DNA of 64,000 bases from Ginglymostoma cirratum (taxonomy: Eukaryota): contig JAHRHZ010000274.1 in NCBI GenBank assembly GCA_024137785.1, forward strand, positions 19,068,097 to 19,132,096, written 5' to 3'. Positions 12,119 to 63,800 of the stretch are shown here, one piece after another. Under the pieces are notes generated by a model, which saw nothing but the letters and a program-made list of their open reading frames with translations, had not been told where the DNA came from and did not search any database. Position 1 is the stretch's first letter. Every line of letters starts with the position of its first letter. Made by a program: the position numbers and the translations under genes.

Positions 12119-12140
12119 TCAAACAACTGTGTACATTAGG

Positions 12141-12846
12141 GATAACAAGGTGTAGAGCTGGATGAACACAGCAGGCCAAGCAGCATCAGAGGAGCAGGAA
12201 GGCTGACATTTCGGGCCTAGACCCTTCTTCAGAAATGGGGGAGGGGAAGGGGGTTCTGAAAGAAACAGGGAGAGACGGGGAGGCAGATAGAAGATGGATA
12301 GAGGAGAAGATAGGTGGAGAGGAGACCGGTTCATATTCCGCTTGGGAACCCTGCAGCCCAATGGTATCAATGTGGACTTCACAAGCTTCAAAATCTCCCC
12401 TCCCCCACCGCTTCCCAAAAACAGCCCAGCTCATCCCCGCCTCCCTAACCTGTCCATCCTCCCACCTATCCCGTCCTCCCACCACAAGCCCCAGCCCCCT
12501 CTCCTACCTACTAACCTCATCCCGCCCCCTTGACCTGTCCGTCCTCCCTGGACTGACCTATCTCCTCCCTACCGCCCCACTTACACTCACCTTTACTGGC
12601 TCCATCCCCGCCTCTTTGACCAGTCTGTCTCCTCTCCACCTATCTTCTCCTCTATCCATCTTCTATCCACCTCCCCATCTCTCCCTATTTATTTCAGAAC
12701 CCGCTTCCCCTCCCCCATTTCTGACGAAGGGCCTAGGCCTGAAACGTCAGCCTTCCTGCTCCTCTGATGCTGCTTGGCCTCCTGTGTTCATCCAGCTCTA
12801 CACCTTGTTATCTCAGATTCTCCAGCATCTGCAGTTCCTACTATCT
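12141..12846 (+). mobile_element. 5'-truncated PLE (family B) with inverted 5' pLTR and 14-bp TSD
   Basis: TSD CTGTGTACATTAGG at 12127-12140 and 12847-12860. 12141-~12325 is the reverse complement of the 3' part. GIY-YIG C-terminus FIFRLGTLQPNGINVDFTSF. Hammerhead cores at 12205-12232 (-) and 12721-12748 (+). Confidence 0.92.
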
Positions 12847-13699
12847 CTGTGTACATTAGGACTTTGTGGAAGACCATTTCTCTGCACAAAGACTGTGTGA
12901 CATCACTAGGTTCAGTGGAGCAGATGCCACTTCATCATTAACTCTTTCAGAACCATTGTTTTTAAAACATTGGGTGCTGGGGTTTGGGGCAGGACCAAGG
13001 AGAAAATCAGGATCCTGTGCTTTTCATGTTTCCGGGCCCCTTTATGCAATCACCTCACCCACCCCAGGTAAACTCTGAGTTAAAGCATCTCAAATAATAG
13101 TGGTGAGTAAACATTCACAAATAGCTCTCACTGCCCCCAACATTGCAGCCTTCAATGTGACCAGACAAATTCTGAAATGTTGTTGCTCACATTACTTTAA
13201 AAAAAGCTGAATTAATCTGAAGTCACTTTTAAAGGCAAGGACCTTGGTATTTACTCCAAATGTTCCCAATAGATGAACTAATGCCTGTGGATTGCATATA
13301 GACAGATCTCATGACTGGACCGTTCCTCAGCCTACAAACTTCACAGAGCATGCAAGATGAGGTGAGTAGAAAGTTCATTCATGATGAAGGCTGGTGGCAC
13401 TGCCTGTGCCAACCTACTGATGGAAAGTAGAGGACCCCTCCCCCACCAGCTCCTGGCATCCCCTGGCATCCACATGGTCCCCATCAGCCAATACGCCACA
13501 CACTTTATTTTAATAGCTTGTATTTCAGCACTGACTCTCCTTGCACACTTAGCAATCTCTGACACAGAACATTGATGGCCAGGCAAGAACTAACAGAAGA
13601 ATGAGAAAGCCTTCAACTAGCCCACTGCAGTCCTCACAACTGCTCTACAAAGACTCCGCTCACCCACTGATGGACCAAGTCAATGTGAATATGCTCTGA

Positions 13700-14010
13700 G
13701 GAAAGATGAAAGAGGCTTGTGCTTTACAGTCTAGAAAGAAAAGATAAAAGGGAATGCCTTATTGAAGTACATAAAATATTAATTACTATAAATAAGGTGC
13801 GCCCAGATTGTTCCTGCAATGCATGCTAAGGAAGAAAAATTAGAGGCCATGAAATAAAAATGAACTAAAAGCAAATCTAAAGAAAACAAAAGTTAAGCTC
13901 ACACTTTCTTTAAGAGTGACGAAAGCACGGTCTACCAGATAGGTGAAACCAAGCTAAAAACGATAAATCTTCTAATGGGAGAGTTAAGGTAACGGGGGAT
14001 TGATAGCAAA
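13700..14010 (+). mobile_element. Old CR1 3' fragment
   Basis: YSLERK..LIEVHKIL-like CR1 C-terminal motif, heavily decayed. Confidence 0.55.
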
Positions 14011-14276
14011 AATTAACTGCTTTACGTAATTTTATCTTGATAGTCATTCTTTAATTCAACTATAATAATAGAGTTTTTAAAAACTAGCTAATAAAAAACC
14101 AGTTCCTCAGCCTAACTTGGTCCAAATGGTGCAGTGTTGCTTTGGTTACATTCAAGGTAGAGACTCACTGAAAAATTAAGTCATATTGGGATAAAACAAC
14201 AAAAGGTAGCTGACAAGTACAAGAAGCTTGGCTTGTGCTGCATTTCAGCTTTGAAATGGCTTGATACAGCTTTCAG

Positions 14277-14420
14277 TTGAGTCCCTTTACTGCAAGCAGC
14301 CAGTGGAAATCAGAGCAGGTCGGAACATGCCCGGCCTGTCAAGAAGCTCAGAGCCTGGGTGTTTCCTTACCCTTGTCAAGCCAGAATCTGGTGCACAATC
14401 AGTCTGCTGAAAGCATCGAG
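14277..14420 (+). other. Candidate exon (144 nt, phase 0/0), product unknown
   Basis: ctttcag acceptor and GAG|gtaagt donor. The only open frame reads LSPFTASSQWKSEQVGTCPACQEAQSLGVSLPLSSQNLVHNQSAESIE; no homology recognised. Confidence 0.25.
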
Positions 14421-16394: not shown

Positions 16395-16515
16395 CTACCA
16401 ACTACTACCTGCCCCACATGTGACCAAGTTTGCATTCGACATATCAGCCAACTCAGAACCTTCAAACTGGCACGGAAGCAACTCATCATTAACCTATGAG
16501 CCTAAGAAGAAGATG
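16395..16515 (+). mobile_element. RTE-like LINE 3' terminal fragment
   Basis: TTTCPTCDQVC..ISQLRT (C2H2 relic), then GGAAGCAACTCATC..CCTAAGAAGAAGA tail. Confidence 0.5.
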
Positions 16516-18302
16516 AACAAGGTAAGAACTAGTGACAAAGCTTAACTGCAGCTGTTTTCTTGTCTTATCTCAGTCTTCTCTCACTTAGCGCTCATGCTGC
16601 TCACACAACATCTACTTATCTCCGGAGTGGGAACTTGATAGCTGCTTTGAGCAATAGCCTTCAGTGATTCAGAATAGACAATCAGATTTGATGGTTATTT
16701 ACCAACTTGGGGAAGAAGGTAAGCACAGGCTAACCCAGAACACTGCCTTAATCACAGAATTACAGAATGGTGCAGAAAGCAACCGATTGTGCCTGTACCA
16801 GCTCATTAAATAATGGTCATTATCTCATTAATGGGACGCAGCACTTGTCTGGATTTGATGAAAGATCAGCTTGATTGAACACATGAACAGGCTCAAGAGA
16901 CTCATTTTCTTCTCCCTTCTCCTATGTTAGAGCAGCTCAGGTATACCAGGATCCACCTGGTACATCTTATTATTTTCCAGGAGTTCCACCTACTGCAACA
17001 ATGTTGATATCTCCTGGCTCAGCATGCTTGGTACATTCTGGGTAGGTTCCCTGGATTCCACTGGGAGGTGCCACAGGAAGCCAGTAGAAGATGACCTGTT
17101 GAAATTGTTTAACTGCCAGCCTTGGGCGCTGAGGACAAGTTTTTTTTCTAAATTTCACTTTAGCATGAAGCGATTGATCGACCTGTGGTTAATTGTGTAG
17201 GGTGTGCTGTCCTTTAAACCTTAAACACCACTTCTGCTACCATAGCAACCCTGCATGCTAGCAAAGCACTTCAAATTTGATGCACCAGCACTTCCATGGC
17301 ACAAAGGAGACAAATTCCGTCATCTGCCTAGCATTGTTCCATCCCTCCCCATATATTAGCAGCACTGAAGCTTGTAAGGGGAATGAACTGACAGGGAGAA
17401 ATGAAGAGAAAGAAAAGCCATCATGCAGCCAGTAAATGCAATCTGCAAGCCGGTGATAAAGCAGCCTGGCACTAAGCCTCCTGTTTAATGGTCACTGAAA
17501 TGGAAATAGTGCTGAAGGAGGCCATTGGAGGAAGAGACCCCAGCCTGCCATTTCCACAGATCCGTGTTGGAAAGAGAGGAATGTGGCTTAGAGGGCATCA
17601 CTTTGATTTACTTTGTTATGCCAAGCCTATGACGTAAGAGCTTTTACAACAGATGGCACAGCCCTCTGTGCTGGCTCTCTGTCAAACTGGGTCCTTGGGT
17701 TCAGCTCGCTACTTCCATTGGCAAGGCTAGGTGCACATAGATTCGTAGCTGTGGTTGATGGCATTTTGGCAAATGCACAGCTTCCTGTTGATCCTCCTGA
17801 CACATTTTCTTTGATATAATCTGACTGAAATCATAATATTCTCTGATTGGGTGTTTCTACAAAAGCAAACCAGCATTGAGACCAGTCAGCCTTTTCTACT
17901 AGATAGTCCTACCATCCACTTTATTGTCACAGAAGGGTAATTTTCAGCTTTGTTGCCTATGTGTCAACCGAGAGAATAGAATTCCTGCCAATTGTAAAAT
18001 CCATCTCATTTTCATTCTGTTGAAATTAGTCAAGTTCTCCATAAAGCAGGAACTCCACTCAGTCATGTTATTATGTAGGGTTGAAACTGTCTCTCAGTAT
18101 CTTTGGAGATTAGAGTTTCTCAAGGCATCCATATCACCAGGTGCTCTTGATGTCTGTCTGCAGATGTGGGAGTATGGGTACAGTGGGCTGGTACAGAATA
18201 CTTCTGGAACAGCCTATCTTCCTTGACATCCTTCCAGTGATCTTATTTTTACTTCTCCAAAAACCACAAATTTATGAGGAAGACAAGTCCCATTAGGACA
18301 TT

Positions 18303-18534
18303 GAGATAACAAGGCATAGAGCTGGATGAACACAGCAGGCCAAGCAGCATCAGAGGAGCAGGAAAGCTGACGTTTCAGGCCTAGACCCTTCTTCAGAAAA
18401 TCTCAGAAAATCTGAAGAAGGGTCGAGGCCCGAAACGTCAGCTTTCCTGCTCTTCTGACGCTGCTTGGCCTGCTGTGTTCATCCAGCTCTATACCTTGTT
18501 ATCTCAGATTCTCTAGCATCTGCAGTTCCTGCTA
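18303..18534. mobile_element. Fold-back mini-PLE (family B): two inverted 95-bp pLTR arms with a 15-bp TSD
   Basis: Arms at 18303-18397 and 18411-18505. TSD TCCCATTAGGACATT at 18288-18302 and 18535-18549. Confidence 0.92.
18412..18439 (+). ncRNA. Minimal hammerhead core, with a mirror copy on the minus strand at 18369-18396
   Basis: CTGAAGA-A-GGGTCGAGGCCC-GAAACGTC. Confidence 0.65.
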
Positions 18535-20505
18535 TCCCATTAGGACATTAATGTCCCAGATCCATTTTTCATTAAAATGTTGTGTTGAGTGAGTTACAAC
18601 AAGATGTTGGGAAGTCAATAACCACAGGCTGAATTCCTATAGGCCCATGATAGCAGGCTTGGAAGGGACATCTCAATCTGGGAAATGGGGAGAGCTATGA
18701 TGGAACAGTTCCACAAGCATTCCTGCTAATAAGAACTTTTCCGGTGAGTGGAAGAGGACCCTAATCACCCACCGCACCATAGAGTTAGGAAACCAAAGAA
18801 ATTGACCGCGGACTCATCAAATCCGATTTTGTGATTAATGCTCAGGTTTTATTACCAGTTTAGCCCCATGTCCTCACTCCATCAAACAGTTATTGCCATC
18901 TCCAAGAAGCACACCTCCCCAGATTCATGCTGCCATCAGCATTGAAAGATTCATTGCACCTAAACAGGAAAGACCTTACTCTTGGAACAAATGATGCAAC
19001 CAGAGTTTTCTCCCCCTCAGTTACAAAGGAACTAGTAGCATTGTTCTGTATAATTTTGGGAAATTCATGCATCTGAAGATGCTCAGGTTGAGGCTCCCTT
19101 GCAATCCCTGATCTTCCATGACAGTGCCTTCCTCTCAGGGTGGGCTGTCAGACCTCTGATGTGGCCAACAAGAATGCCACCTCCTTTAAAATTGTGCCAA
19201 TGAACTCCAGCATCCTTCAGCTTACCACCCAATTGATAGCAACAAATGCAATGAGAATATCTTCACCTGGTGTATTAATTCCTTAATATTTTGTAGCTCC
19301 TGCTTAAAGTTGAAGGCAAATATGGGTTAGATTTAAGTTAAATATTCATCTTTAAAGGGCTGTGTGATGCATGGTTCTCAACAGACATTAAATAAAAGAT
19401 TTATCCTATGATTACATTTGTGGAGCATTGCCACAAGTAGTATTTACCATTTTAATGGCAAAACTGGTGTAAGTTTACAACTATAATTTTAATGCAGGTT
19501 GATATTATTAAGATCAATGAAATGTGGATTTACTTATATGAAATACTTGTAGATTTGTGTCCGTATAAATTTAAATAACATGATACAAATAATAACGTGA
19601 TATAAATTGTACCAACTCACATATTTTATTTCATATAACCAAAGAGTTGAGACATGCAAGGAAAATGCTATCGTTGACCAAAAGATTTAGAATTAAATAA
19701 ACATGATTCCAGACCTCTGTGTAAATCAATTTAATGCTCGACAAATTAGAATACAAATTATGTATTTTGCATAATATTTTCAATTTAATTTCGCTCACAA
19801 CATAATTAACTTAACTTAAATATAAATAGTAAAAATTATTAATCTTATAAACAATCTGTTCATAACCTAAGCATAATACATCTCAATAACAACATTCATT
19901 TTAGATCCTACTGGCCTGTAGCTTAGTAATTGCATCCTTGATAATTAATAGAGGTTTTCAGAAATATTTACAAGAATATTTTAAAAGACTATTCTGAGTG
20001 AAGAACTTGTAAATATTAGGAAAAATGTTTACATTTGTTTTCAAATCTATTTTTGAGAATTTATCAAAAGGTGTGTAAAAAGTTTTCCATTAATAATAAT
20101 CTTGAATAGTATAAGTCTACAGCAACATGAGGCTCAATTTGTTAACATTTTGAGGGTGAATCTCACCCCAGATTCAACGATGGAAATATTTCTTACTCAG
20201 TCTTTCATTCTTGCAAGTGTTTCTAATGTAATCATTTAGCCTGTCAGGAAAAACCTTTGCTCATTGGACCTTAATCCTTAATGTTTTATTTTCCCCTTAC
20301 CCTGTGGAAACACAAATCTGTATGGAGTCATTTGCTGTTCCATACTAATTTACATAAAGTTACCATTGTTCACACCAATCAGAATTAAGGTGTAACTTAT
20401 ATTATGATAGAATTAAGTGTGAGCAAATAAATGTGTTTACACAATATGATGCTGTCCTGAGTATATGGCAAGAAGAAACAAAAGAAAAAAGTCATCATTA
20501 GAAAA

Positions 20506-20604
20506 AGATTTCCCGAAGAAGGGTCCAGATCCGAAACGTCAGCTTTCCTGCTCCTCTGATGCTGCTTGGCCTGCTGTGTTCATCCAGCTCTAGACCTTGT
20601 TATC
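20506..20604 (+). mobile_element. Single-arm PLE family B insertion with 14-bp TSD
   Basis: TSD TCATCATTAGAAAA at 20492-20505 and 20605-20618. Hammerhead core is mutated (CCGAAGA). Confidence 0.85.
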
Positions 20605-21977
20605 TCATCATTAGAAAAGCCAAGATCTCAGCAGGTAAAGTTTATTATTATCCCAGCAAAGGAATAGAGGTGAGCAACTATTACTTTTATGAGCATTACA
20701 ACTTAGGCTGTGATGAAAGGTTAATTAGCTTGATTTCTTTGAGAAAGGGAAGGCAACAGGGAAGATTTCCATTCACCTGAAAGAGGTGCATCAGGGTTAT
20801 GCATTTCCCAAATCTATGGTCAGGACGCCTAAACAATTTATGAGATTTGGTTCTCACTTCCTTTCGGCTGGTGAGGTGTAGTCACCAAAATGGGCACTTC
20901 AGTGCAGCTTACTGCTTTCCGATGGCACAAATCAGCTAGCTGCGTTACAGACTGAGCCTGTTCCAGAGAACAGCCAATCCCAATAGGACTGAATCAGTAT
21001 AAACAGGTTAACCCCATGAAGATCTTAGGCATCTTTGGAAAATAAGGGAATCCTTCAATGAGCTGCAAGGTACATATAGGGATTAGCTTCATAATGTCTG
21101 GTACAATTAGATTGTATAAAGCAGACTCATTTGAACATAAAAATTGTAATCAATAAGCCTTCCAATTTTTCTAAAGGATCAGATTTAAGTGAGCGTCTGG
21201 TTTTCAATTTTCAAAGTTTTTTTATACTTCTGCATTTTATTTTAGATTTTGTCAATGTTTCTGAATGCTTAAAAAAACTGATATAATTTTGGAATAGTTA
21301 ATGGGGGGTGAATTTTAATTAAATAATAACTTTTTTATCAACTCGTCAAAAGAAAAATAGACCAGTAATGCCCGGCTGCTAAAATCACCTGAAAACAAGG
21401 AATAGTATTCACACTCTTCCAACAGGAGAGCAACAGAGAGGGGAGGGAACACAAAACAGCTTGTCTAGTATCAGCTTTCACAAGAGCTTAGGGAGCCACA
21501 AGGCATTGAAACACAAGTGCAGACTCCTATGGCAGTCTAGAAAAGGTCAAGTTTATGATCTGGTCTGATTTGGATGGACCCAAAACACAGTATTTGATTT
21601 GATGCAGGATGACAGGGAACAGGGAGGTTATCATTGTGTTTGAAGCACACTTGTTTCATTTACTATTATGCCATTAACCATCTCAAACTTTTGGCACACC
21701 TAATGACAGCCACAGACAACTACCTCGACAGGTTTCCTGTAGACACCTCATAAAATTGAAATGTTAAACACATGTTAAACATTCCTCTGCTATTAACTGT
21801 GACCACGATTTCTAGCCTCATATATTTTATGATTCTAAAAACAGAAATCTAAAAAAGCAGAAAACGCAGATTAACATTCAGTTATCACTCTTCAAACATA
21901 ATTCAGTTAAAAGTTTTAAATGACAAAACTGAAATCTTTGCTTTTAATTGGATTGATAACCAGAACCCCAGTATTCT

Positions 21978-25185: not shown

Positions 25186-25945
25186 TAAGAACATAAGAAC
25201 ATAAGAGCTAGGAGCAGGAGTAGGCCACCTGGCCCCTCGAGTCTGCCCTGCCATTTAATAAGATCATGACTGATCTTTTTGAGACTCAGCTCCACTTACC
25301 CGCCCACTCACCATAACCCTTAATTCCTTTACTATTCAAAAATTTATCTAACCTTGCCTTAAAAACATTCACGAGGTAGCTTCAAACGCTTCACTGGGCA
25401 GGGAATTCCACAGATTCACAACCCTTTGCGTGAAGAAGTTCCTCCTGACCTCAGTCCTACATCTGCTTCCCTTTATTTTGAGGTGATGCCCTCTCGTCCT
25501 AGTTTCACCTGCTAGCGGAAACAACCTCCCTGCCTCCACCTTATCTATTCCCTTCATAATTTTATATGTTTCTATAAGATCTCCCCTCATTCTTCTGAAT
25601 TCCAATGAGTATAATCCCAGTCTAGTCAGTCTCTCCTCATAATCCAACCCTCTCAACTCTGGAATCAACTGAGTGAATCTCCTCTGCACCCCCTCCGGTG
25701 TTAATATATCTCTTCTCAAGTAAGGAGACCAAAACTGCGCACAGTACTCCAGGTGTGGCCTCACCAGGACCCTATACAGCTGCAGCATAGCCTCCCTGTT
25801 TTTAAACTCCATCCCTCTAGCAACGATAGACAAAATTCCATTTGCCTTTTTAATCACCTGCTGCACCTGCAATCCTACTTTTAGCGATTCATGCACAAGG
25901 ACACCAAAGTCCCTCTGCACAGCAGCATGCAGCAATTTTTTTACC
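25186..25945 (-). mobile_element. Young 5'-truncated CR1 LINE with an uninterrupted ORF2 C-terminal frame
   Basis: ORF 25369-25947 (VQRDFGVLVHESLK..LYRVLVRPHLEYCAQFWSPY..RMRGDLIETYKIMKG..NFFTQRVVNLWNSLP) and (TTCTTATG)n tail. Confidence 0.95.
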
Positions 25946-26271
25946 ATGCATGCATATGGCTGGTCCAGTTAAGTTTCAGCTTCCAAATGAAGGCCTTTAA
26001 TTCATGAAATTTTCTCAAAAAGGATTCTACAGCTTCAAATTCCACAGAACATGATGGAAATGCTGAGTAGTTCTGCTGTTACCAGTGGAGAGGGCAACAG
26101 AATAAACAGTTGATACTTGCAGGCCTGTGGAATGTTTCCAGCATTTTCTGGTTCTATTTCAGATTTTCAACAACTATAGTACTTTGCTTTTGTTTTCCTC
26201 AATATTGAAGTTGTTTCAGACTGGCAGCAATAAATTCTCCCTGTCATCACCAAACTGACTGGAAGTTTTGT

Positions 26272-27930: not shown

Positions 27931-28014
27931 TCACATTTTGAAACCCTTAGCATGTATTAGTCAATGTACTTTCCTCATATTGAATCATTGATTTAAAAAG
28001 TATTACATTAGTTG

Positions 28015-28782
28015 ATGTTGTAGACTTGCTCGCCGAGCCAGTGTGTTTGATTTCAGATGTTTAGTCACCCTGTTAGGTAACATGGTCAGTGTGCCTCTGG
28101 TGAAGCGTTGGTGTTCTGTCCCACTTGTTATTTGTGAGCCTCAGTTTGCTGGGGTGGTTGGCATCACTTCTAGTTCTGTTTCTCAGTGGTTTGTATATCG
28201 GTCCAGTTCAATATGTTTGTTGATGGAGTTCCAGTTGGAATGCCAGGCCTCAAGGAATTCCCTAAGGGAATTCTGTTTGGTTTGTGCTATTATGGATGTG
28301 TTGTCTCAGTCGAATTCGTGTCTTTCTTTGTCCATGTGTATTGAGACCAGTGAGAATTGGTTATGTCTCTGGGTAGCCAGTTAGTATTTGTGTGTCCTTA
28401 TTGTCAGTTTTCTTCCAGTTTGGCCTGTGTAATGTTTCTCACAGTCCTTGCATGGTATTTTTTATATTACATTAGTTTTATTGGCTGTGGTGTGGGATCC
28501 TTTACATTTGTCAGTTTGTCGTAGGGTGGTTGTTGGTTTGTGGGCTACCCTGATACCTAGGGGTCTGAGTAGTCTTGTGGTCATCTCTGATACGTGTGTG
28601 ATGTATGGTATGGTGACCAAGGCATATAAATAACAAGCGGGGCAGAACACCAAAGCTTCACCGGAGGCGCACTGACGATATTACCTAGCAGAGTGATGAA
28701 ACGTCTCCAATCAAACACACCCGCTCAGCGAGCAAGTCTACAACCTTACCACAACTTGAACTACAAATCTTCTCAAAAACTT
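28015..28782 (-). mobile_element. Poseidon-like PLE (family C): GIY-YIG region with inverted pLTR arms and 14-bp TSD
   Basis: TIPYITHVSEMTTRLLRPLGIRVAHKP..NVI*KIPCKDCEKHYTGQTGR..REFLEAWHS..SINKHIELD. Arms at ~28017-28134 and ~28627-28745. TSD TA(T/C)TACATTAGTTG at 28001-28014 and 28783-28796. Confidence 0.9.
28668..28708 (+). ncRNA. Minimal hammerhead motif (PLE family C)
   Basis: CTGACGA (28672-28678), T, stem II ATTAC/GTGAT, GAAACGTC (28698-28705). A decayed mirror copy lies near 28055-28090. Confidence 0.6.
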
Positions 28783-29179
28783 TACTACATTAGTTGTTGT
28801 ACACAAAGTCATGCAGCAGGCATGTTAAACATGGTGGCAAAGTGCAGAAGTTGATTGGATCTGAATGGCGATGATGGTCATTGTGCAGTATGTGCTATGT
28901 ATTAAGATCATTTGTTTGCCAATGGGTTTTGTTGTATATGTGCATATTTATTATTTTGTTATCTTGTTTCACCATGTTTCCATATGACACAAGTATAAAT
29001 GTTATGTTCTACAACAAAGTGAGGTGCCAACTGCCAAAACAAGCTAAAGCCAGCTTGTTATATATGTGCTAAATCATTGAATCTGTGCAGTATAAATTAC
29101 TTTATGTAAATTGTATTCTTCTGCATGCTGTTAGCTTGAAAGAAGCAGGTGCTTGGAGTGAAAATGACATTTAGCATAA

Positions 29180-30220: not shown

Positions 30221-30379
30221 TTGGTACTACAAGATAGTTTGCTTCATAGAGAGTAAATTCAACAAACAAAATTAACTCTAGACGCATTATGAGTATTATT
30301 AGCTGAACCCCAATGGAACTACACATAACAAGATTTTAGACTGGAGGATTAAAGTACATCATGATGGAAAAATTAAAGA

Positions 30380-31040
30380 CAATGAAAATGGAATGTTGAC
30401 CTTTATTTCAAGGGGAATTGAGTATAAAAATAGGAAGATTTAGTTAAAACTATACAAGACACTAGTCAGAACATGGTTGGAATATTGTGAACAGTTTTAA
30501 TCCTTTTATCTGAGGAAGGATATACTAACAATTGAGAAGTCCAGAGAAGGTTCAGTAGGCTGATTTCAGATATGGAGGGATTGTTTTATGAGGAGAAGTT
30601 GAGTAGGTTGGGTCTGTGCTCATTGGAATTTAGAAGAATTAGAAGCAGTCTTATTGAAACATACAAGATTCTTAAGGAGACTAGATAGTATAGATGTGGA
30701 GAGGTTGTTTCCGCTTGTGGTAGAGTCAAAGACCAGACAACATAATCTCAGAATAATAGGTTGCATACTTAAGGCAGAAATGTGGAGAAATTCCTTCTCT
30801 CAGCGTGTAGTGAATCTGTAGAATTCTTTACCATGAAGGGATGTTGAGGTTGGGTCAACAAGTATACTTAAGGCTGTGATAGACAGATTTTTAATCAGTA
30901 AGGGAGACAAAGATCATAGGGAAATGGCAGGAAGGTGGAATTTAAGATTATAAGATCAATCATGATCTCACAGAGTGGTGCTGCAGTTTCGATGGGCTGA
31001 TTGGACTACTTTGGCTCTTACGTCTTTTGGTCTTATGACC
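30380..31040 (+). mobile_element. CR1 LINE 3' fragment
   Basis: ENGMLTFISRGIEYKNR..LYKTLVR..LEYCEQF..YEEKLSRLGLCSLEFRR..LIETYKIL. Confidence 0.9.
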
Positions 31041-31059
31041 TTAACTCTCTACTGACTAG

Positions 31060-32440: not shown

Positions 32441-33436
32441 TGGTCTGTTTAAGGTTTGGTGGTTGTTTGAAGGTGAGAAGTGGAGGTGTAGGGAAGATCT
32501 TGGCAAGGTGTTCACCATCATCAATAATGTGTTGAAGGCTGTGAAGAACGTGGCGTAGTTTCTCCGCTCCCAGGAAGTAGTGGACGATGAAGGGCTCCCT
32601 ATCAGACGTATCCCATATCTGTCTTCTGACGAGGTCATTACGGTTTTTCGCTGTGGCACATCAGAACTGGCAATCGATGAGCTGAGCATCGTATCCTGTT
32701 CCTATGAGGGCGTCCTTCAACACCTTCAGGTATCTGTCTCATTCCTCCTCATCCAAACAAATTCTGTGTATGCATAGGGTTTGTCTGAAGGGGAAGCTAG
32801 AGAGTGCAGCCTCATGAGGTTATCCTTGGGCTTGCGGTAGAATGAGGTACGTAGGTGTGCCTGACTGATGGAGATGCGTGTGTCCAAGAATGAGACTGAT
32901 TCTAAAGAGTAATCTAAGATAACTTTGATGGTGGGGTGAAACTTGCAGATATTGCTATGTAATTGTTTCAGTGATTCCTCGCCATGAGTCCAAAGGAAGA
33001 AAATGTCTTCAATGTATCTGGTGTATAGCATTGGTCGGAGGCTCTGTGCAGCAAAGACGTCTTGTGCGAACGTGTACACGAAAATGTTTTGTGTACTGGG
33101 GAGCGAATCTGATCCCCATGGCTGTTCCATGCGTCTGGATGAAGAACTGGTTGTTGAAGGTGAAGATGTTATGGCTGAGGATAAAGTGGATGAGTTGTAG
33201 GATGGCGTATGGAAATTGGCAGTTGTTGGTATTGAGTAGAGAGGCTGTTGCAGTGATGCCAGTCGTCGTGGGGAATGCTGTTGTAGAGTGTCAAAATATC
33301 CATTGTAACGAGGAATGTTCCTGGTTCGATTGGTCCGTGGGAGCTGAGTTTCTGTAAGAAATCTGTAGTGTCGCGACAGAAGCTGGGGGTTCCCTGTACA
33401 ATGGATTTCAAGATGTCCTCGACATAGCCCTCGACT
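32441..33436 (-). mobile_element. PLE family A, inverted RT segment
   Basis: VQGTPSFCRDTTDFLQKL..FLVTMDILTLYNSIPHDD..LYTRYIEDIFFLWTHGEESL; equivalent to 44422-45436. Confidence 0.92.
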
Positions 33437-34447
33437 TGACAACCTCTGCAAGACATGTCAGATCTTCGGCATGGACACTACCATCACACGTGGGAACACC
33501 ACCCACCACATACCTGGCAGATACTTATGTGACTCAGCCAACATCGTCTATCTCAGACGCTGCAGGCAAGGATGCTCCGAGCCATGGTATATTGGCAAAA
33601 CAGTACAGACGCGATGACAACAGACGAATGGATACTGCGCAACAATTGCCAGACAGGAATGTTGCCTCCGAGTGGTCAGCGGTCAAGGATATTCAGCCTC
33701 GGGTCTTTGGGTAAACTTCCTCCAAGGTGGACTTAGGGATACACAACGCAGAATTGCTGAGCTGATAGGCATGTTTAGTACCCATGAAGATAGCCTCAAC
33801 CGGGATCTTGGATTGATGTCACACTACAGGTGACCTTCCCCACACTANNNNNNNNNNNNNNNNNNNNNNNNNNNNNNNNNNNNNNNNNNNNNNNNNNNNN
33901 NNNNNNNNNNNNNNNNNNNNNNNNNNNNNNNNNNNNNNNNNNNNNNNNNNNNNNNNNNNNNNNNNNNNNNNNNNNNNNNNNNNNNNNNNNNNNNNNNTGC
34001 AGATACAGTCTATTTAGTTCATAAAGCGACAGTCAGTCAATGTTACGTTTTATAAAATCCTACTTTAGAAATAAAACCAGTCTGGCTCCAAACCAAAACA
34101 TAAACAGATTCTAAACAAAGGCTCGCACCTATCTTGCATTGTCTGACGTAAAATGTCACCTCTTATTTACATTGACAAAACCTGTAGTTCTCTCAGGACA
34201 GTGGCTTCAAAGGGATTCGGGGATTTACGAAACATATTAATCAATTACAACCTTCTAACTGATTAAAGATTTAACAGCCTCTTAGTACGTCCTCATCAGT
34301 GGTGTGACACTTTGATCTTATAAATTCTGTGTCTGATACTACCTCTCTCACTAACACCTGGAGAAGGAGCAAGACTCCGAAAGCTTGTGTTTTCAAATAA
34401 ACCTGTTGGACTATAACCTGGTGCCATGTGATTTCTGACCTTGTACA
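33437..34447 (+). mobile_element. PLE family A, GIY-YIG segment and 3' pLTR (same insertion as 32441-33436)
   Basis: NLCKTCQIF..CDSANIVYL..WYIGKT; equivalent to 45489 onward. Hammerhead-like AACAC-CTGGAGA-AGGAG..CTCC-GAAAGCTT-GTGTT at ~34353-34391. Confidence 0.9.
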
Positions 34448-42340: not shown

Positions 42341-42498
42341 CATAGCTAAAACACAACACTGGCATCTACCCAAAAATGTGGAAACTTGCTCATCTATGTC
42401 CTGTCCAGAAAATGATGTGGAGTTGCTGATGTTGGACTGGAGTGGACAAGGTCAGAAATGACACAACACCAGGTTATAGTCCAACAGGTTTATTTGAA

Positions 42499-42537
42499 AA
42501 CACAAGCTTTCGGACCCTCAGTCCTTCTTCAGGTATT
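42499..42537 (-). ncRNA. Minimal hammerhead ribozyme with intact core (PLE family A)
   Basis: AAUAC-CUGAAGA-A-GGAC-UGAGG-GUCC-GAAAGCUU-GUGUU: 5-bp stem I, 4-bp stem II, palindromic AAGCUU stem III and CUU triplet. Confidence 0.75.
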
Positions 42538-43280
42538 AGTGAAAGAGGTAGTATCAGACACAGAATTTATAAGTAAAGGATCAAAGATTCACACACCATT
42601 GATGAGGAAGTACTGAACAAACCTAAGAAGCTTTTAAACCTTTAATTAGTCAGAAGGTTGTAATTGATTAATATATATGTGTAAATCCCCGAATTCCTTT
42701 CAAGTCACAATCCTGAAAGAACTAAAGGTTTTATCAGTGTAAAGAAGAGGTGACATTTTAAGTCAGACAATGCATGTTAAGTGTGAGGCCTTGTTTAGAA
42801 TCTGTTTGTGCTTTAGTTTGGAGTCAGACTGGTTGTATTTCTAAAGTGAGAATTTATAAAACGCCATATCGACTGACTGTCTATAAATCGTGTGCTTTTT
42901 GAACAAAATAANNNNNNNNNNNNNNNNNNNNNNNNNNNNNNNNNNNNNNNNNNNNNNNNNNNNNNNNNNNNNNNNNNNNNNNNNNNNNNNNNNNNNNNNN
43001 NNNNNNNNNNNNNNNNNNNNNNNNNNNNNNNNNNNNNNNNNNNNNNNNNNNNNNNNNNNNNNNNNNNNNNNNNNNNNNNNNNNNNNNNNNNNNNNNNNNN
43101 NNNNNNNNNNNNNNNNNNNNGAGAGTGTGTNNNNNNNNNNNNNNNNNNNNNNNNNNNNNNNNNNNNNNNNNNNNNNNNNNNNNNNNNNNNNNNNNNNNNN
43201 NNNNNNNNNNNNNNNNNNNNNNNNNNNNNNNNNNNNNNNNNNNNNNNNNNNNNNNNNNNNNNNNNNNNNNNNNNNNNNNN

Positions 43281-45904
43281 ACTGCCAGCTCAAAGTGGAG
43301 AGGATCTCCAAGCAGATCACAAAAAATCATCAAGTTTCTACAGAAATGCAAGAAAGCACAAAATATCCAAAAGCACTACAGATCACGAACCCACTCAAGC
43401 CGACCTACAACACTGATTACGCTGAGAGACTTTGTTGTTGCACCTCTCACAAGCTCCTCAATCATCTCATACACCAACTCTACAGCAAGTGCCATAACCT
43501 TGAAATCGAGATGGAGTCCATATTCTCAGCTTACGCTCCAGATACAGCAGCACAGTAGTGAGACACTGCCAAACAGACACGGCAATGGAACTACATCACC
43601 TACATGCACAGTAAGGACAAGAAACTGGAGAAACTTGGCATCATCACCGGCAATAACCAAGTCTCCCCTGGTACCACAGTTGAAGGTGGTACCACCACAG
43701 GAAAATCCTTCGTCAACTTATCTGACCACACCCTTCAACTGGACGAGATCAAAGTTCTCAGCCGAGGACTCAATTTATGCCCCACCACCAAAATGGACAC
43801 CACTGGACTTGCAGCAGACACAGAGGAATTCATCAGACAAATGAGACTCCAGGACTTCTTCCCAGATGTCAGCAGACAGCCCAATGAGACAACCAGCGAA
43901 TCGGATCAGTCGACAGTGAGATCCATGGGGGAGCGGGCAAAGAAGGAGTTGAACAGGACCCCTCTGGAGGGCCATTGCCCTGGGCTTTCACAGGTTTGCT
44001 TAACCCATCAGAGAATTTGGGAATGCCAGATTTATCAGCTGCACTCACAAAGTAGTGTAAAATTCACTCAGGCACAACGCAACGCCATCCATGCTCTCAT
44101 GACCAATCGCAACATCGTCATCAAACTAGCAGACAAAAGAGGAGCCATTGCCGTACAGAGTAGAACAGTCTACTGTAAGGAAGTGTACTGTTAGCTGAAC
44201 AACCAGGAACACTACAGACAACTATCTGCCGATCCAACCAAAGAATACACCCGTCAACTGAACAGACTGGTCAAGATTTTTGATCAAGACCTTCAGAGTA
44301 CCCTACACACTCTTATCCCATGTACTTCCCAGACTTCTGCTGCTTTCCAAAAATACACAAAGCCAACACACCTGGACGTCCCATCATATCAGGCAATGGG
44401 ACCCTGTGTGAGAACCTCTCTGGATAGGCCGAGGGCATCTTAAAACCTATTGAACAGGGAACCTCCCATCTTCTGTGATGACACGGCAGATTCCTTATAG
44501 AAACCCAACACCCACAGACCAGTCAAACCAGGAATATTCTTCGTTACAATGGATATTTTGACACTCTACACAAGCATCCTCCATGACGATGGCATCACCG
44601 CAACAGCCTCTGCACTCAATACCAACAACTGGCAATTTCCATACGTCATCCTACAACTCACCAGATTCATCCTCAACCACAACATCTTCACCTTCGACAA
44701 CCAGTTCTTCATCTAGACATATGGAACAGCCATAGGGGTTAGATTCGCTCCCCAGTCTGCCAACATTTTCATGTACAGCTTCGAACAAGACTTCTTTGCT
44801 ACACAGAGCCTCCAATCAATGCTATACACCAGGTACATTGAAGATATTTTCTTCCTTTGGACCCATGGCGAGGAATCACTGAAACAACTATATAGCGATA
44901 TCAGCAAGTTTTATCCCACCGTCACACTTACAATGGACTATTCTTTAGAATCATTCTCATTCTTGTACACACGCATCTCCATCAGGCTCGGACACCTCAG
45001 CGCATCACTGTACCTCAAGCCTACACATAACCTCACGATGCTGCACTTCTCTAGTTTCAACCCTAAACATATTAAAACAGCCATCCCCTACAGACAAGCC
45101 CTACGCATACACAGAATCTGTTCAGACAAGGAGGAAAGAGGCGGACTCCTGAAGGTGTTGAAAGATGCCTTCATAGGAACAGGATATGATGCTCAACTCA
45201 TCGATCATCAACTCTGACATGCCACAGCGAAAAACCGTAATGACCTCCTCAAAAGACTGACACAGGATAATCCAATAGGGTGCCCTTTGTTGTCCAGTAG
45301 TTCCCAGGAGCGGAGAAACTACGCCATGTCCTTCGCAGCCTTCAACGCATTATCGATGATGATGAGCACCTAGCCAAGATCTTCCCCTTGCCTTCACTTT
45401 TTGCCTTCACATAACCACCAAACCTTAAACAGATCATTGTTTGCAGGAAAATACTCAGCCTTCAGGACAACATCGCCCACAACTGTCATGGTAACCTCTG
45501 CAAGACATGTCAGATCTTCGGCATAGACACTGCCATCACACATGGGAATACCACCCACCATGTGCACGGCAGATACTCATGTGACTCGGCCAATGTTATC
45601 TATTCTCATATGCTGTAGGCAAGAATACCTCAACTCGTGGTATATTGGTGAAATCATTCAGACACCACGACAACGGATGAATGGATACCATGCAACAATT
45701 GCCAGACAGGAATGTTCCCTCCCAGTGGGGGAACATTTCAGCGGTCAAGGACATTCGGCCTCGGATCTTTGGGTAAACATCCTCCAAGGCAGACTTCGGG
45801 ATACACAACAACACAGAGTTGCTGAACAGAGGCTGATAGCCAAGTTCAGTATCCATGAGGATGGCCTCAACCAGGATCTTGGGTTCATGTTGCACTACAG
45901 GTGA
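43281..45904 (+). pseudogene. Disrupted PLE ORF: N-terminal domain, reverse transcriptase, Cys-rich linker and GIY-YIG endonuclease
   Basis: FVNLSDHTL..VLSRGLNLCPT, NIVIKLADKRGAI, FPKIHKANTPGRPIISG, RYIEDIFFLW, AIPYRQALRIHRICS, CHGNLCKTCQI, WYIGE..RQRMNGYH..VGEHFS..AEQRLIAKF..GLNQD. Multiple stops and frameshifts. Confidence 0.95.
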
Positions 45905-45921
45905 CGCCACTAAACTATACA

Positions 45922-45923
<2 letters not shown>

Positions 45924-45971
<48 letters not shown>
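45924..45971 (+). repeat. (CA)n microsatellite at the start of the PLE 3' UTR
   Basis: Seen directly. The N gaps at 33848-33997 and 42912-43280 fall at the equivalent position in the other family A copies. Confidence 0.95.
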
Positions 45972-45973
<2 letters not shown>

Positions 45974-46067
45974 TATGTGAATCTATGAGGTGAATTTGTA
46001 TTTGCGTATACATTTTATTTTGTTCAAAAAGAACACAATTTATAGGCAGTCAATATGGCATTTTATG

Positions 46068-46170
46068 AACAACAAAAACAGAAGTTGCTGGAAAAACTCA
46101 GCAAACCTGGCAGCATCTGTGAAGAAAAAATCAGAGTTAACATTTCAGATCCGGTGACCCTTCCTCAGAC
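46068..46170 (-). mobile_element. Short pLTR-derived repeat nested in the family A pLTR
   Basis: Absent from the homologous positions near 34055 and 42850. Confidence 0.75.
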
Positions 46171-46439
46171 TGCCTACTTTAGAAATGAAACCAGTCTGAC
46201 TCCAAATGAAAACACAAATAGATTCTAAACAAGGCCTCAAACTTAACTTGCATTGTCTGACCTAAAATGTCACCACTTCCTTACATTGATAAAACCTTTA
46301 GTTCTCTCAGGAGAGTGACTTCAAAGGAATTCATGGATTTACATATGCATATCTATAAATTACAACCTTCTAACTGATTAAAGACTTAACAGTGTTTTAG
46401 GTTTGTTTAGTACATCCCCATCAGTGGTGTGGCCCTTTG

Positions 46440-46808
46440 GGAAGGTGATGGCCTAGTGGTGCTACCTGGACTGTTAATCTTGAGACTCTGATAATGTTCT
46501 GGGAGCCTGCGTTGGAATCCCACCACTGCAGATGGTGGAATTTGAATTCAATAAATATCTGGAATTAAGAATCTTTGATGACTATGAATCCATTGCTGAT
46601 TGTCAGGAAAATCCCAATTGGTTCACTAATGTCCTTCATGGAAGGAAACTGCCATCCTTACCTGGTCTGGCCTACATGTGACTCCAGACCCACAGCAATG
46701 TGGTTGACTCTGAACTGCCCTCTGGGTAATTAGGGACAAGCAATAAATGCTGCCTAAGTAGCGATGCCGTCGTCCCATGAATGAATAAAAATGCATGAAT
46801 AAAAAAAA
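46440..46808 (+). mobile_element. tRNA-derived SINE nested in the family A pLTR
   Basis: TGGCCTAGTGG A-box, GTTGGAATCCC B-box-like motif, A-rich tail, flanked by CCCTTTG / CCCTTG. Confidence 0.85.
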
Positions 46809-47129
46809 CCCTTGATCTTTTACTTATAAATTCTGTGTCAGATACTACCTCTCTCACTAACACCTGAAGAAGGACTGAGGCTCCAAAAGCTTGTTGTTTC
46901 AAATAAACCTGTTGGACTATAACCTGGTTTCGTGTGATTTCTGACCCTGTCCAGAAAATGCGTAACAAATCCAATCCAGCCAATTAGCATCAGTCTACTC
47001 TCAAACATCACAAAGTGATATTTGGTGCTGGTGACAATACTATCAAGCCGCACCTATGCAGCAATAACCTACTCTCCAATGCTCAGCTAGGTTACTAACA
47101 GGGCTCTTCTAAATCAACCCTCTGTTAAT

Positions 47130-58279: not shown

Positions 58280-58740
58280 AGGAAACAGAAACATAGTAGT
58301 AACATGGAATGCTCTATTTAGGGGAATAGACGCTGTTCTCTGCAGTAAACACCAGATCCCAAAGGTTGTACAATCTGAAAGAACTACAGATGCTGTAAAT
58401 CAGAAGCAAAAGCAGAAATTGCGTGAAAAGCTCAGCAGGTCTGGCAGCATCTGTGAAGAGAAATCAGAGCCAACTGTTCTATGGAAGGGTCACTAGACCT
58501 GAAACATTAACTCTGATTTCTCTCCACAGATACTGCTAGACCTGCTGAGCTTTTCCAGCAATTTCTGTTTTTGTCCCAAAGATTGCGTTGCCTACCTGTT
58601 TCTGAGGTAAAGGATATCTCTTCTGGGCTGGAGAAGAACTTGAAGTAGGAATGGAGGTATCCAGTTACCATGATGAATATGAATATCAACCACATAGGTA
58701 GGTCTAGTAAAGAGATTCTACTGAAGGACCATGAGAAACT
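58280..58740 (+). pseudogene. CR1 ORF1 SGNH-esterase relic, split by a fold-back element
   Basis: NIVVTWNALFRGIDAVLCS..|RCLPVSEVKDISSGLEKNL..YPVTMMNMNINHIG, compared with VVVGDSIVRG..CLPGA.V.D..PVVVVHVGTNDIG. Confidence 0.65.
58369..58573. mobile_element. Fold-back pLTR-derived element with 12-bp TSD
   Basis: TSD TCCCAAAG(G/A)TTG at 58357-58368 and 58574-58585. Inverted arms surround GGAAGGGTCACTAGACCTGAAACATT. Confidence 0.8.
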
Positions 58741-58967: not shown

Positions 58968-60095
58968 ATAGAGTCATAGTCAGACAGCATGGAAACAGAC
59001 CTTTTGGTCCAACCAGTCCAAACTAACCGTAATCCCAAACTATATTAGTCCCACTTGCCTTCACTTGGCCCATATCCTTCCAAACCTTTCCTATTCATGA
59101 AATTATCCAAATATCTTTTAAACATTTTAACTATACCCGCGTCCACTACTTTATCTGGCAGTTCATTCCACGCATAAACCATTCTCTATGTAAAAATGTT
59201 GCCCCCATGTCCTTTTTAAATCCTTCTCCTCTTGCCTAAAAACATGACATCTAGTTTTGAACTTCCCCATCCTAGGGAAAAGACCTGCTGTCAGTCATCT
59301 TATCTATGCCCACCATGATTTTATTAACCTCAATTAGGTCACCCCTCAACCTCCTACACTCCAATGAAAAAAGTCCCAGTCTTTCCAGTCTATTTTTGTA
59401 CCTCAAAAACTCCACATCTGGCAACATCCTGGTCAATCTTTTTTGAGCCCTCTCCAGTTTAATAATATCTTTCCTATAACAAGGTGACCAGAACTCATAC
59501 AGTATTCCGGAAGAGGCCTCACCGACATTATGTACCACCTCAACATCATTTCCCAACTCTTGCACTCAAAGTTCTGAACAATGAAGGCAAACGTGCTAAA
59601 TGCCTTCTTAACCACACCGTCTACCTGTGATGCAAATTTCAAAGAATTATGTACCTGACCACTTAGCTTTCTCTGTTCTACAACACTACACAAGGCATTA
59701 TCATTAATTGTATAAGTCCTGCCCTTGTTTTTTTGGCCAAAATGCAATACTTCACATTTACCCAAATTAAACTCCTTCTGCCTCTCCTCTGTCCATTGAC
59801 TGAATTGAACAAAATCTCTTTTTACTCTTATCTAACCTTCTTCACTGTCCACTTTACCACCAATTTTGTTGTCGTCCACAAACTTATCAACTATGCCTCC
59901 TATATTCTCATCCAAATCATTTTCTAAATAACAAACAAAAGTGGATCCGCTACCAATCCCTGTGGGAACACCACTGGTCACAGGCCTCCAGTCTGAAAAA
60001 CAACACGCTACCACTACTCTCTGTCTCCTGTCATTAGGTCAATTTTGTATCCAATTGGCAGGCTCACCTCGAATCCCATGTGATCTAACTTTACT
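58968..60095 (-). mobile_element. CR1 (HER1-like) LINE RT and 3' fragment
   Basis: FSDWRPVTSGVP, NDLDENIGGIVDKFVDDNKIGG, KCEVLHFG, FSLECRRLRGDLIEV. Confidence 0.92.
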
Positions 60096-60260
60096 AGTCT
60101 TTTGTAAATGATGCAGTGGATCTCCTAAATTTTACACTCTACTTACATCTCAAGTATGACAACTCATTGACAAGGATGGAACTAATCTTCCCACCAATAA
60201 CTAGCCCATAGTTTAAATATTGCCTTCTTCAGAACACTGGAAAGTTATCTGACCTTTCTA

Positions 60261-60865
60261 GAGATAATAGGAACTGCAGATGCTGGAGAATCTGAGACAA
60301 CAAGGTGTAGAGCTGGATGAACACAGCAGGCCAAGCAGCATCATAGGAGCAGGAAGGCTGACGTTTCGGGCCTAGNNNNNNNNNNNNNNNNNNNNNNNNN
60401 NNNNNNNNNNNNNNNNNNNNNNNNNNNNNNNNNNNNNNNNNNNNNNNNNNNNNNNNNNNNNNNNNNNNNNNNNNNNNNNNNNNNNNNNNNNNNNNNNNNN
60501 NNNNNNNNNNNNNNNNNNNNNNNNNNNNNNNNNNNNNNNNNNNNNNNNNNNNNNNNNNNNNNNNNNNNNNNNNNNNNNNNNNNNNNNNNNNNNNNNNNNN
60601 NNNNNNNNNNNNNNNNNNNNNNNNNNNNNNNNNNNNNNNNNNNNNNNNNNNNNNNNNNNNNNNNNNNNNNNNNNNNNNNNNNNNNNNNNNNNNNNNNNNN
60701 NNNNNNNNNNNNNNNNNNNNNNNNNNNNNNNNNNNNNNNNNNNNNNNNNNNNNNNNNNNNNNNNNNNNNNNNNNNCTGATGAAGGGCCTAGGCCCGAAAC
60801 GTCAGCCTTCCTGCTCCTATGATGCTGCTTGGCCTGCTGTGTTCATCCAGCTCTACACCTTGTTG
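60261..60865. mobile_element. PLE family B insertion with inverted arms and 13-bp TSD; the centre is an assembly gap
   Basis: TSD TCTGACCTTTCTA at 60248-60260 and 60866-60878. Core CTGATGA-A-GGGCCTAGGCCC-GAAACGTC at 60776-60803. Confidence 0.9.
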
Positions 60866-63800
60866 TCTGACCTTTCTATTTTGTTCCGAGAGCAATATTG
60901 GTGGTTTTGAATGGCTGGTTGAAATCCTTTCAGAGCTCCAGTGACAGAACAACATGAAGATCATTAATGGCATTCATGTCAACAATATTACGTCAATATA
61001 GTCCCTTCATCAAAATACGTGGTAGAGACGTAAAGAATGAAGCATCTTTGGAATTCCTGCTTCAAAATATGGTATTTTCACATCTAGTACAGCAGGGGTC
61101 AGATTTAGTGTAAAGTTCATTCAACTGCACCAGCAATGTACCTTAACCACAACTTCACAAAAGCACCCCAAATATATCAGTGTGAATGTTTCATTTCCCA
61201 CACCAACCATCCTTATCATCTCTCGGAGAGCAGTGATTGCACACAGTTAACTTCCATCCAATTGTGTCTAGTGGACCCTTGCCCACTAGGAGCTAACCTG
61301 ACTCACAAGACCCTTATATGTGCCAAACAGAAAATACTTTCACCCATTAATCTAGCCTGAATTCAAATAATTGTCCCAGAGACAAAAACACCATGCTAAA
61401 CCATTGCAGAAACCGTATTCACCCACGCATAATTACCATCTGGTAGAATCGAATAAATTTCTAACCCCGCAAATCCAGAAATGATTCACTGTTTTGCGAA
61501 AGGTAGTGCCCTGTAACGTTTCAGGAAACGAATAGTATTACAGAAGCTTGCGATGCATCCTTCAGGCACGACGAATCCTCGAGTACCACTTCGGGCAAGG
61601 AGTGAAATACGTACGAAATGGCTGCAGTTCCAATTAGAAATGTTTGTTTGAAAGTTTGTATTCAGCACATAGTCAGCAATTAAGTCCAGAATTATTATAG
61701 TTTGAACTTGTCTGGAGGTGCCAAATAGAAACCAGTACGTTATGTTTTCAATTGCTGATAAAATACAACTTTCATGGAGCAGTACATGTGGGCTCTGCAC
61801 TCCTACTAGTAATTATGATGTGAAGTGCTCTGACCAGCACATAATAGCACATTACAGGATGGCTCAGGGACTGAGGGAAGGAGTGCATGGATTCTTCACT
61901 ATAACACTAGAGGCCCTGGTGCTGAAATCCAGAGGGAGATGGATCTCTTGTATCTGGTGTACATGGGTGACAAGTTTCTGAAAGGGCTAATAGTGATACA
62001 ATGGCAGAAGCACCATCCACTATGATAATACTGTGGGGACTGATGGAGAAGGTAGTCTTGAAGGAATCAGATCCAAGAGCAGATCCTCATAACAGTCTCT
62101 GTAAGAATATATATCATGTTCTTCTAACATGTAAATAGTTGCAGAGATGCAATTAAATATATTTTGTTTACGATTAGAGACTCTCCCAGTTGGACTGGAA
62201 GGTGAGTATCCTTGTCGATGTAGAACATGCACACAGGCACTGGAGAATAGGATAACTCGAAGACGTTGATGGCAACACATAGGTCTGTACCTGCAGGAAG
62301 GGCCAGGGCCACCTGAGTTTCCTAGGACCCTTATCCCTCTCTCCTGCAGGGTCTGATGCTGCTCCTCCCACTCCTTATTCAGATTAATGGGAACCACTAA
62401 CTTCTCCTGGAGAACCTGTAAGGTGTTAAATAAGGTGGCATAGCACTGCATTTATTCTTTTTACATAAAGCCCTCAGAGAATTTCCAGAATAAATGTTCC
62501 TTGTGCTGCTAAAGTGTCCCAGAAGTCTGCTGATATGTTTCAGTGGATTTTTTTTAGCTCACAGCTCCAGCACCATGAAATGGCAAGTATATCTTCGAGG
62601 GATTAGTATCCCATCAAATAGTGCTAAAGATTGACATGCTATGTGTCCTCCCAGGAAGCTGGTCATTGTTAGGGGAAGGTGTTGACCGAAACACCGTAAT
62701 CACCAGAATGCTTCACAGTATCTTTAATGAGCGCAGGAGGGCATTTTAAAAGGCAATCAATTGTTGCGTGAATTTCTGAATATCACTTCCTAATGTTGCT
62801 TTTAACTTCTTTACCAAGATGGTATGTTGCACTAACCTGAGCTGTACCAGGATTTCATCTCTGACTCTACTGTAGTTGCATCTTTACATTTAGTCTGCGA
62901 TACAAAATGTCTGAGATACAGTGTTAACAAAAAATTTTCATAACATGTTCATATCTTGATGACAATTGTATCAGAATAAAACCTCACTAAGTCTTTTGCA
63001 GCTTCTACATTTGTAAACTAAAATGATACTGTGGATATAGAAATAAATCCTTAGTTCATAAAATAATTTGTGGTTTATATGAATGGTTCTATTTTCATGG
63101 AGGGAGCTGGTGTTGGAAATATCGTATAATTATTGTTGCACATTTCAACCCGCCCACAAGGTGAGGTCAAATGTTAAGCTAACTTGACACCTCACTTAGT
63201 GATGCAAATTTTTAACATCAGAAGAACCACATGGGGCAGTATTTAAGCCAGGCTGGAGAGTGAGGGTAAGCCCTGTCGCGTTCCTTAGGGAAAAACCAAT
63301 AAGTTACTAATTGGTAGTGGGCATTTCTTGACATTGAGGACCCGTAATGTGAAACTTCCACTCCTCACGGCAACAGCCAGCCCATTAGAGTCTGGCAGCT
63401 GGTTATGGCAGGTAGTGTTGCCAAGCATGGGACAAGGGCCCCACCAGAGGAACAGGATGAGTGAGTGACCCTTGCCCCAGGTGAGTGAGGGAGGGATGGC
63501 TCAGTGCATGGTATGGGTTACAGGAAGGGGGCAGCTGAGAATAAGTGTTGATTTTCAGCATTTTGTATTCTCAATGTCATCTGACTTAAACAAGCACTAA
63601 GTACATGACTCCTCCCACTCCCTGCTTTGGAGACTCACAAATAAACCAACAGTGCTTCAATTCTTCACTCTCCCCCTATGGTGAGCCCCCTACTCACCAC
63701 TGGCTAAATACCAGCAGCAGCGGGATAAGGTCTACGGAAGGGTATCAAGTGGCCACAGGGCAAGAGGTCTGCCATGAGCTTTCCTGTAAAGGCAGTGGCA

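Follow-up and report, generated by a model that had tools for sequence, protein, structure and literature searches.

Paired ends, target site duplications and probable two-sided priming of Penelope-like elements in Ginglymostoma cirratum

For Pen2a_Av, a Penelope-like element (PLE) of Adineta vaga, an inverted pseudo-long terminal repeat (pLTR), a tail and target site duplications (TSDs) of 8–10 bp have been published (PMC3846280). The formation of inverted pLTRs and tails in PLEs is described as undefined, and their TSD length as variable (PMC8557442). The protein of PAc (Poseidon, Anolis carolinensis) cuts and extends both DNA strands in vitro, and a dimer is predicted for it (PMC11167929). 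Here, PLEs are described from a stretch of 64,000 nt of Ginglymostoma cirratum (GCA_024137785.1, contig JAHRHZ010000274.1, positions 19,068,097–19,132,096, forward strand), the whole of which is designated the window. Together with loci found by DNA search in the same genome and further fetched stretches, the data set has 359 sequences with 1,691,362 non-N bases and 871 outward-facing ends. The pattern of these ends is real and well supported, and it belongs to a known class of element. It is best read as a Penelope form of twin priming, with priming at two preset sites.

Target site duplications, end zones and arms

Inverted pairs were defined by proximity of their ends, and a TSD was called as a flanking direct repeat with a score of at least 9; cross-paired flanks served as controls. 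A TSD was found in 123 of 213 proximity pairs and in 0 of 639 controls, and in 71/319 and 21/81 single ends, with 5/957 and 1/243 in the controls. The median TSD of pairs is 14 bp, with 89 of 123 at 12–15 bp and a spread of 9–19 bp. The regular length that the original prediction had read from seven insertions of the window is thus found again in 1.69 Mb. TSDs of single ends are broader in length, with a second group near 10 bp. Mean length is 14.0 bp in family A (n=75), 13.1 in D (15), 12.4 in B (14), and 12.2 in C (19), and A differs from C with p=2e-4. By simulated decay, the true stagger would be near 13–14 in family A, and in B and C near 12. A staggered cut, which had been predicted at about 14 nt, is kept at about 12–14 nt, but with different values by family. 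TSD length is not correlated with the spacing of the two start positions.

All seven TSDs predicted in the window were recovered, five of them exact (14, 15, 14, 15, and 13 bp), while those of the insertions at 28015 and 58369 need one mismatch. The insertions had been assigned to three families; their ends belong to four, namely A (12141, 18303, 20506, and 60261), B (28015), C (42415), and D (58369). Family references were built for the ends of A (A1 and A2), B, C, and D, and overlaps between end and TSD were judged against them. The five overlaps named before, at 46948–46953, 42412–42414, 60866, 20605, and 18535, all match the family reference; at 46946, 7 of 8 nt match, with one mismatch. 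Because the window's seven TSDs are the positive cases among 15 entries, one could take the repeats for chance matches, pre-existing duplications or assembly artefacts. The empty controls stand against this, as do the empty paralogues, which were sought for 214 sites and found for 51, at targets that were repeats themselves: the motif is single in 44, unclear in 5, and flagged as duplicated in 2, where no second copy was seen on inspection. The empty sites thus do not show the duplication as already present. Moreover, the arms of A1 copies diverge by about 4–5%, and hence they are not assembly copies. Such an origin of the repeats can practically be discounted.

The ends of each family cluster in two zones, with a distance of 35.5 nt in A1 (n=39) and 36.6 nt in C (n=12). 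The SD (standard deviation) of each zone is 1–3 nt, being 2.3 and 2.7 nt in A1. The ends had been described as stopping at different points of the pLTR; instead, they are confined to these two narrow zones. The gap between the zones is the known PLE tail. Of 123 TSD-bounded pairs, 122 combine a tail end with a short end (binomial p 2e-35), and the same holds for 37 of 37 pairs that were no search target and were scored separately. This is the strongest regularity in the data, and the original prediction did not contain it. Single-armed copies without an inverted arm use either site, 37 the short one and 35 the tail one. In copies L173, L389, and L026, the inverted tail arm has only 7–30 nt and the short-end arm next to it is longer; some copies that look single-armed are in fact two-armed.

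Arm lengths were analysed in family A, the libraries of B, C, and D containing inverted structures. From 81 tail-plus-short A insertions, 16 with N runs or unresolved middles were removed, and 65 remained. The short arm reaches further 5' in 19 of them, the tail arm in 16, and in 30 the arms are within 15 nt of each other; in the extreme copy L389, the tail arm has 30 nt and the short arm 1117 nt. These numbers bear on fold-back self-priming (PMC3846280), in which a palindrome lets the first cDNA (complementary DNA), or an antisense template, fold onto itself and be copied into the inverted arm. The 30 insertions with similar arms and the 16 with a longer tail arm are compatible with it, and many inversion junctions overlap by a few bases. 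Yet in the other 19 insertions the tail arm is the shorter one, so that the short arm was not copied from it, and a short arm, being without a tail, cannot have served as template for one. Fold-back is refuted in these 19 cases; it could hold for a minority, and as the general explanation it is very improbable.

Of the 130 arms, 68 end just 5' of the hammerhead core, at a distance of 80–100 nt upstream from the anchor, and additional T is frequent there. This barrier may be the 5' end of the RNA; Drosophila Penelope is known to have a promoter within its pLTR (PMC2377424). The hammerhead-like core pattern is present in the window copies of A1, A2, B, and C and missing in the D copy, and a search in Rfam gave no hammerhead match. 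Among insertions in which both arms reach the barrier, both continue past it in 9 and neither does in 24, with 1 discordant case (p=2e-7). Non-consensus variants common to both arms number 0.56 per pair, versus 0.19 across insertions. The coupled arm lengths and shared variants indicate that both arms were copied from the same RNA species, either short or read-through. That the inverted architecture arises at insertion, as originally predicted, agrees with the TSD-bounded pairs, the comparison of arms, and the empty paralogues.

Pairing with the RNA and proposed insertion mechanism

In the pairing test, the reference sequence that continues past a given end was compared with the TSD copy not touching this end. 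From 338 ends, those with at least two bases fitting neither reference nor TSD (81) and those without an independent or long enough reference (52) were dropped, leaving 205. Three nulls were used, namely shifted, other-end, and same-group, the last being a permutation within one family and end type. Contiguous overlap is 1.52 nt versus 0.70 by chance, the first 8 nt have 3.80 matches versus 2.37, and the 4 nt after the first mismatch have 1.74 versus 1.07, while positions 9–13 are at chance (1.23 versus 1.30). With distance from the overhang tip, the match fades over 8 nt, and it does so at tail and short ends alike. Excess of overlap and of first-8 matches is present in 6 of 6 family/end groups under all three nulls; the excess after the mismatch is not significant at C tail ends and marginal in B. 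Dropped ends (n=62) have the same but weaker profile. The match is lost under the same-group permutation and is therefore specific to the register rather than a fixed nuclease motif. Overlap is zero at 50 of 205 ends; copying can thus start without pairing, which acts as a bias only, in agreement with the starts without homology of PAc in vitro (PMC11167929).

The microhomology predicted at the junctions therefore exceeds chance. Internal priming from both target 3' ends by short pairing, which had been proposed together with it, holds insofar as pairing is above chance at both end types, but the start zone is preset: pairing merely selects the register inside two preset zones and not where copying starts. 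The same overlaps could be a record of repair, if the cDNA were made first and then joined to a break with 3' overhangs by microhomology-mediated end joining of the host. Imperfect short homology is the usual trace of that process too, and the 81 ends with unexplained bases would suit it. On the other hand, the two narrow end zones match the start sites of reverse transcriptase (RT) in vitro (PMC11167929), and the decay of the match from the overhang tip at both end types resembles the primer rules of L1 (PMC3649969). An end-joining origin is distinctly improbable.

Family A insertions have the same loose motif at −8 to −3 outside the TSD on both flanks, in mirror symmetry. It is A-rich with C at −5/−4, a purine at −3, and T depleted (chi-square p 1e-7 to 1e-21, n=262 half-sites), and it is equal at tail-priming and short-priming nicks. 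Its presence on both flanks suggests that one specificity cuts both strands. In single-armed family A copies, TSDs of about 10–11 bp are commoner (e.g., L002, L080, and L284), and their half-site at the 5' junction is displaced slightly outward (n=23, a weak effect), hinting that the unused overhang is trimmed in such copies.

The hexamer CATTAG occurs in the + strand of TSDs 12127–12140, 18288–18302, 20492–20505, and 28004–28014, which belong to two families. It is present in 4 of 6 scored window TSDs; any hexamer common to 4 of 6 random TSDs was obtained in 1 of 20,000 draws, a number to be read with the post hoc choice of the hexamer. As a specificity of the endonuclease (EN) it was rejected, because it is at or beside only 2 of 209 other sites. 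Its sharing among the window TSDs is probably a coincidence.

It is fairly probable that the PLE protein nicks both target strands about 12–14 nt apart and that both 3' overhangs prime, one per start zone. A ribonucleoprotein (RNP), probably dimeric, would read a loose half-site on each side and leave 3' overhangs, this being the sole geometry that gives a TSD when the 3'-OH ends of the target prime. The start zones, about 35 nt apart on the RNA, would be set by the protein and RNA structure, and weak pairing of the overhang tip would pick the register within about 3 nt. Synthesis of both cDNAs would proceed upstream on one RNA species, probably on a single molecule, and often as far as the 5' end before the hammerhead. 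The two cDNAs would then be joined head to head, with the gaps filled by host repair, and single-armed copies would be events where one primer failed. Concerted two-ended integration as the normal route, with a dimer on a symmetric target, cuts about 13–14 nt apart, and two RT sites at the two starts of one RNA, is a tentative extension that we hold somewhat below an even chance. If it is true, the geometry of one complex accounts for the length of the TSD, the tail, the inversion, and the stub length alike.

The two primings could also be sequential: target-primed reverse transcription on one strand would be followed by a later, loosely spaced second nick, at which another RNP would prime with an RNA of its own that stems from the same source locus. 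The TSD spread of 9–19 bp is in its favour, and a fixed spacing is without proof. Often, one stretch of RNA has been copied completely into both arms, as two RNAs would more easily allow, and a shared source locus suffices for coupled arm lengths and shared variants. In the literature, variable TSDs are ascribed to a variable second nick (PMC8557442), and dual priming has been proposed for L1 (PMC2837659). However, independent RNPs give no reason for the near-strict combination of one tail and one short end, as single-armed copies use either site, and the same flank motif is found at both nicks. Sequential dual priming appears unlikely, although clearly less so than end joining or fold-back.

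Several points weigh against priming from both cut ends as outlined above. Among 213 pairs, 90 remained below a TSD score of 9, as did 308 of the 400 single ends, and no correlation was seen between the two start positions of an insertion (rho 0.12, n=39). Tail arms that stop at or near the short start site are only 3 of 65, and such collisions would be expected if one RNA carried two primers. Family D shows the flank motif weakly, and B and C lack it. A fixed spacing of the half-sites explains the sites no better than a motif tied to the TSD edge (cross-validated log-likelihood 119.4 versus 117.0, flat over four spacings), so a rigid dimer draws no support from this comparison. Most loci are top-scoring matches and not a random sample, and the set leans to young copies for this reason; TSDs below 9 bp are beyond the range of the scoring, which makes the length histogram conditional on detection.

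Element identity and insertions in the window

Judged from their sequence, the elements are endonuclease-positive (EN+) PLEs: they combine an RT with a C-terminal GIY-YIG domain, and their inverted pLTRs have a tail of the 30–40-nt class. GIY-YIG is C-terminal to the RT, with cysteines between GIY and YIG, in the translated long copies of A, C, and D and in one B copy. In Neptune, the linker that connects RT with EN has the motif CX2-5CxxC (PMC8557442). The linker zinc finger of Neptune/Nematis is full in C copies and in the homologue P0005, and partial or decayed in A and D. It is absent in L303, the one B copy translating through the region, as in Penelope/Poseidon. By these motifs, A, C, and D would be classified as Neptune-type and B as Penelope/Poseidon-type. 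Homologues of the family C RT with about 70% identity are present in sharks and carry PF00078; the five decayed ORF (open reading frame) pieces of the window that were tested gave no match in Pfam.

Of the 15 window entries scored, 6 reach a score of at least 9, one has 8.5, and 8 are without a TSD (Table 1). No TSD was found for the family C element at 32441–34448. In this copy, which is partly N, an inverted ORF segment is joined to a direct C-terminal segment, like in L1 5' inversion. The 3' pLTR of the C element at 42415 has two nested insertions, 46056–46175 (a family D piece) and 46432–46800 (another repeat); both are missing from its inverted arm, and a clear TSD was not found for them. 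The family A2 pieces at 183–279 and 3400–3496 lie at a distance of 3.2 kb from each other and agree over 97 nt with 100% identity, whereas other copies differ; this suggests very recent copies or gene conversion. The fragments at 25190–25968, 30372–31043, and 59296–59831 resemble the 3' end of a long interspersed nuclear element (LINE) that we take to be of CR1 type; the one tested was negative in Pfam.

Table 1. Penelope-like insertions and their parts in the window (position 1 is the first nucleotide of the window; TSDs are given as left/right copy)
Feature	Positions	Strand	TSD	Remarks
Family A (putative Neptune-type) two-armed insertion 12141–12846	12127–12860		12127–12140/12847–12860, 14 bp exact	Short-end arm inverted left, tail-end arm right
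Hammerhead-like core, start 12721	12715–12752	+		Pattern match; stop point of most family A arms at about 12715, just 5'
Tail of about 35 nt between the two family A start zones	12813–12846	+
Family A two-armed stub 18303–18534	18288–18549		18288–18302/18535–18549, 15 bp exact	Short arm left, tail arm right; both arms end at the barrier before the hammerhead core; 2-nt overlap at tail end
Family A single-armed stub 20506–20604	20492–20618	+	20492–20505/20605–20618, 14 bp exact	Terminates at short site; overlap 3 nt
Family B (putative Penelope/Poseidon-type) two-armed insertion 28015–28785	28001–28800		28001–28014/28783–28796, 14 bp with 1 mismatch (15 also with one)	Exact TSD core of 11 bp, 28004–28014/28786–28796
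Family C (putative Neptune-type) long insertion 42415–46945	42400–46960	+	42400–42414/46946–46960, 15 bp exact	Tail-end pLTR inverted left, short-end pLTR right; decayed RT/GIY-YIG ORF between the two pLTRs; TSD single in empty paralogues of the target repeat
Broken family C ORF pieces	43562–45904	+		N-terminal 43562–44194; RT 44717–45217; GIY-YIG region 45527–45904
Family D (putative Neptune-type) two-armed stub 58369–58573	58357–58585		58357–58368/58574–58585, 12 bp with 1 mismatch	Tail arm left, short arm right
Family A two-armed insertion 60261–60865	60244–60878		60248–60260/60866–60878, 13 bp exact, 17 with 1 mismatch	Tail arm left, short arm right; middle is N

Comparison with known systems

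A distribution of PLE TSD lengths, a counted one-tail rule, and a model of two-ended priming were not found in the literature covered, which lies outside the older primary Penelope papers that may hold parts of them; the available parts of PMC8969392, PMC9977147, PMC12910113, and bioRxiv 10.64898/2026.07.22.740005 have nothing on these points. With the scheme of Pen2a_Av and EN+ PLEs (PMC3846280, PMC8557442), the shark elements have in common an inverted 5'-truncated copy, a 30–40-nt tail at one end, a TSD, and GIY-YIG at the C terminus. The TSDs of Pen2a_Av are single cases of 8–10 bp and are called variable, whereas those of the shark peak at 13–15 bp in A and at about 12 bp in B and C. The tail of EN+ PLEs is called optional or often one-sided in the same sources; in the shark, one tail per TSD-bounded pair is nearly a strict rule.

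PAc and the shark PLEs are alike in having two internal RT start sites that bound the tail (PMC11167929). Starts of PAc are described as not homologous to the cut DNA and without strand bias, with a cut motif ATT, and neither nick spacing nor a model of the inversion was found in the part of PMC11167929 available. In contrast, the shark PLEs have a weak pairing bias over 8 nt, a strict asymmetry of ends, and, in family A, a symmetric flank motif. The counts given here turn an open step of PLE insertion into specific predictions on nick spacing, use of strands and start sites, choice of register, and one RNA or two. The end rules also give exact boundaries with which thousands of copies in cartilaginous fish genomes can be annotated. 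PLE RTs are a sister group to telomerase RT, and alignment of the primer by short imperfect pairing at an internal template is for this reason a possible shared trait.

A close parallel in mechanism is twin or dual priming of L1, where the second 3' overhang also primes internally and head-to-head arms lie within one TSD (PMC2837659), and where pairing of the primer tip also tolerates mismatches (PMC3649969). In the shark insertions, too, a single TSD encloses head-to-head arms, and the junction of the second primer shows homology. For L1, one start is on the poly(A) tail and the other at an internal site that varies, and sequence is usually deleted at the junction (PMC2837659). The shark PLEs differ: they lack poly(A), their two starts have preset positions 35 nt from each other, and one and the same stretch of RNA is copied twice. 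Insertion of these elements works like twin priming, but it is not the L1 mechanism.

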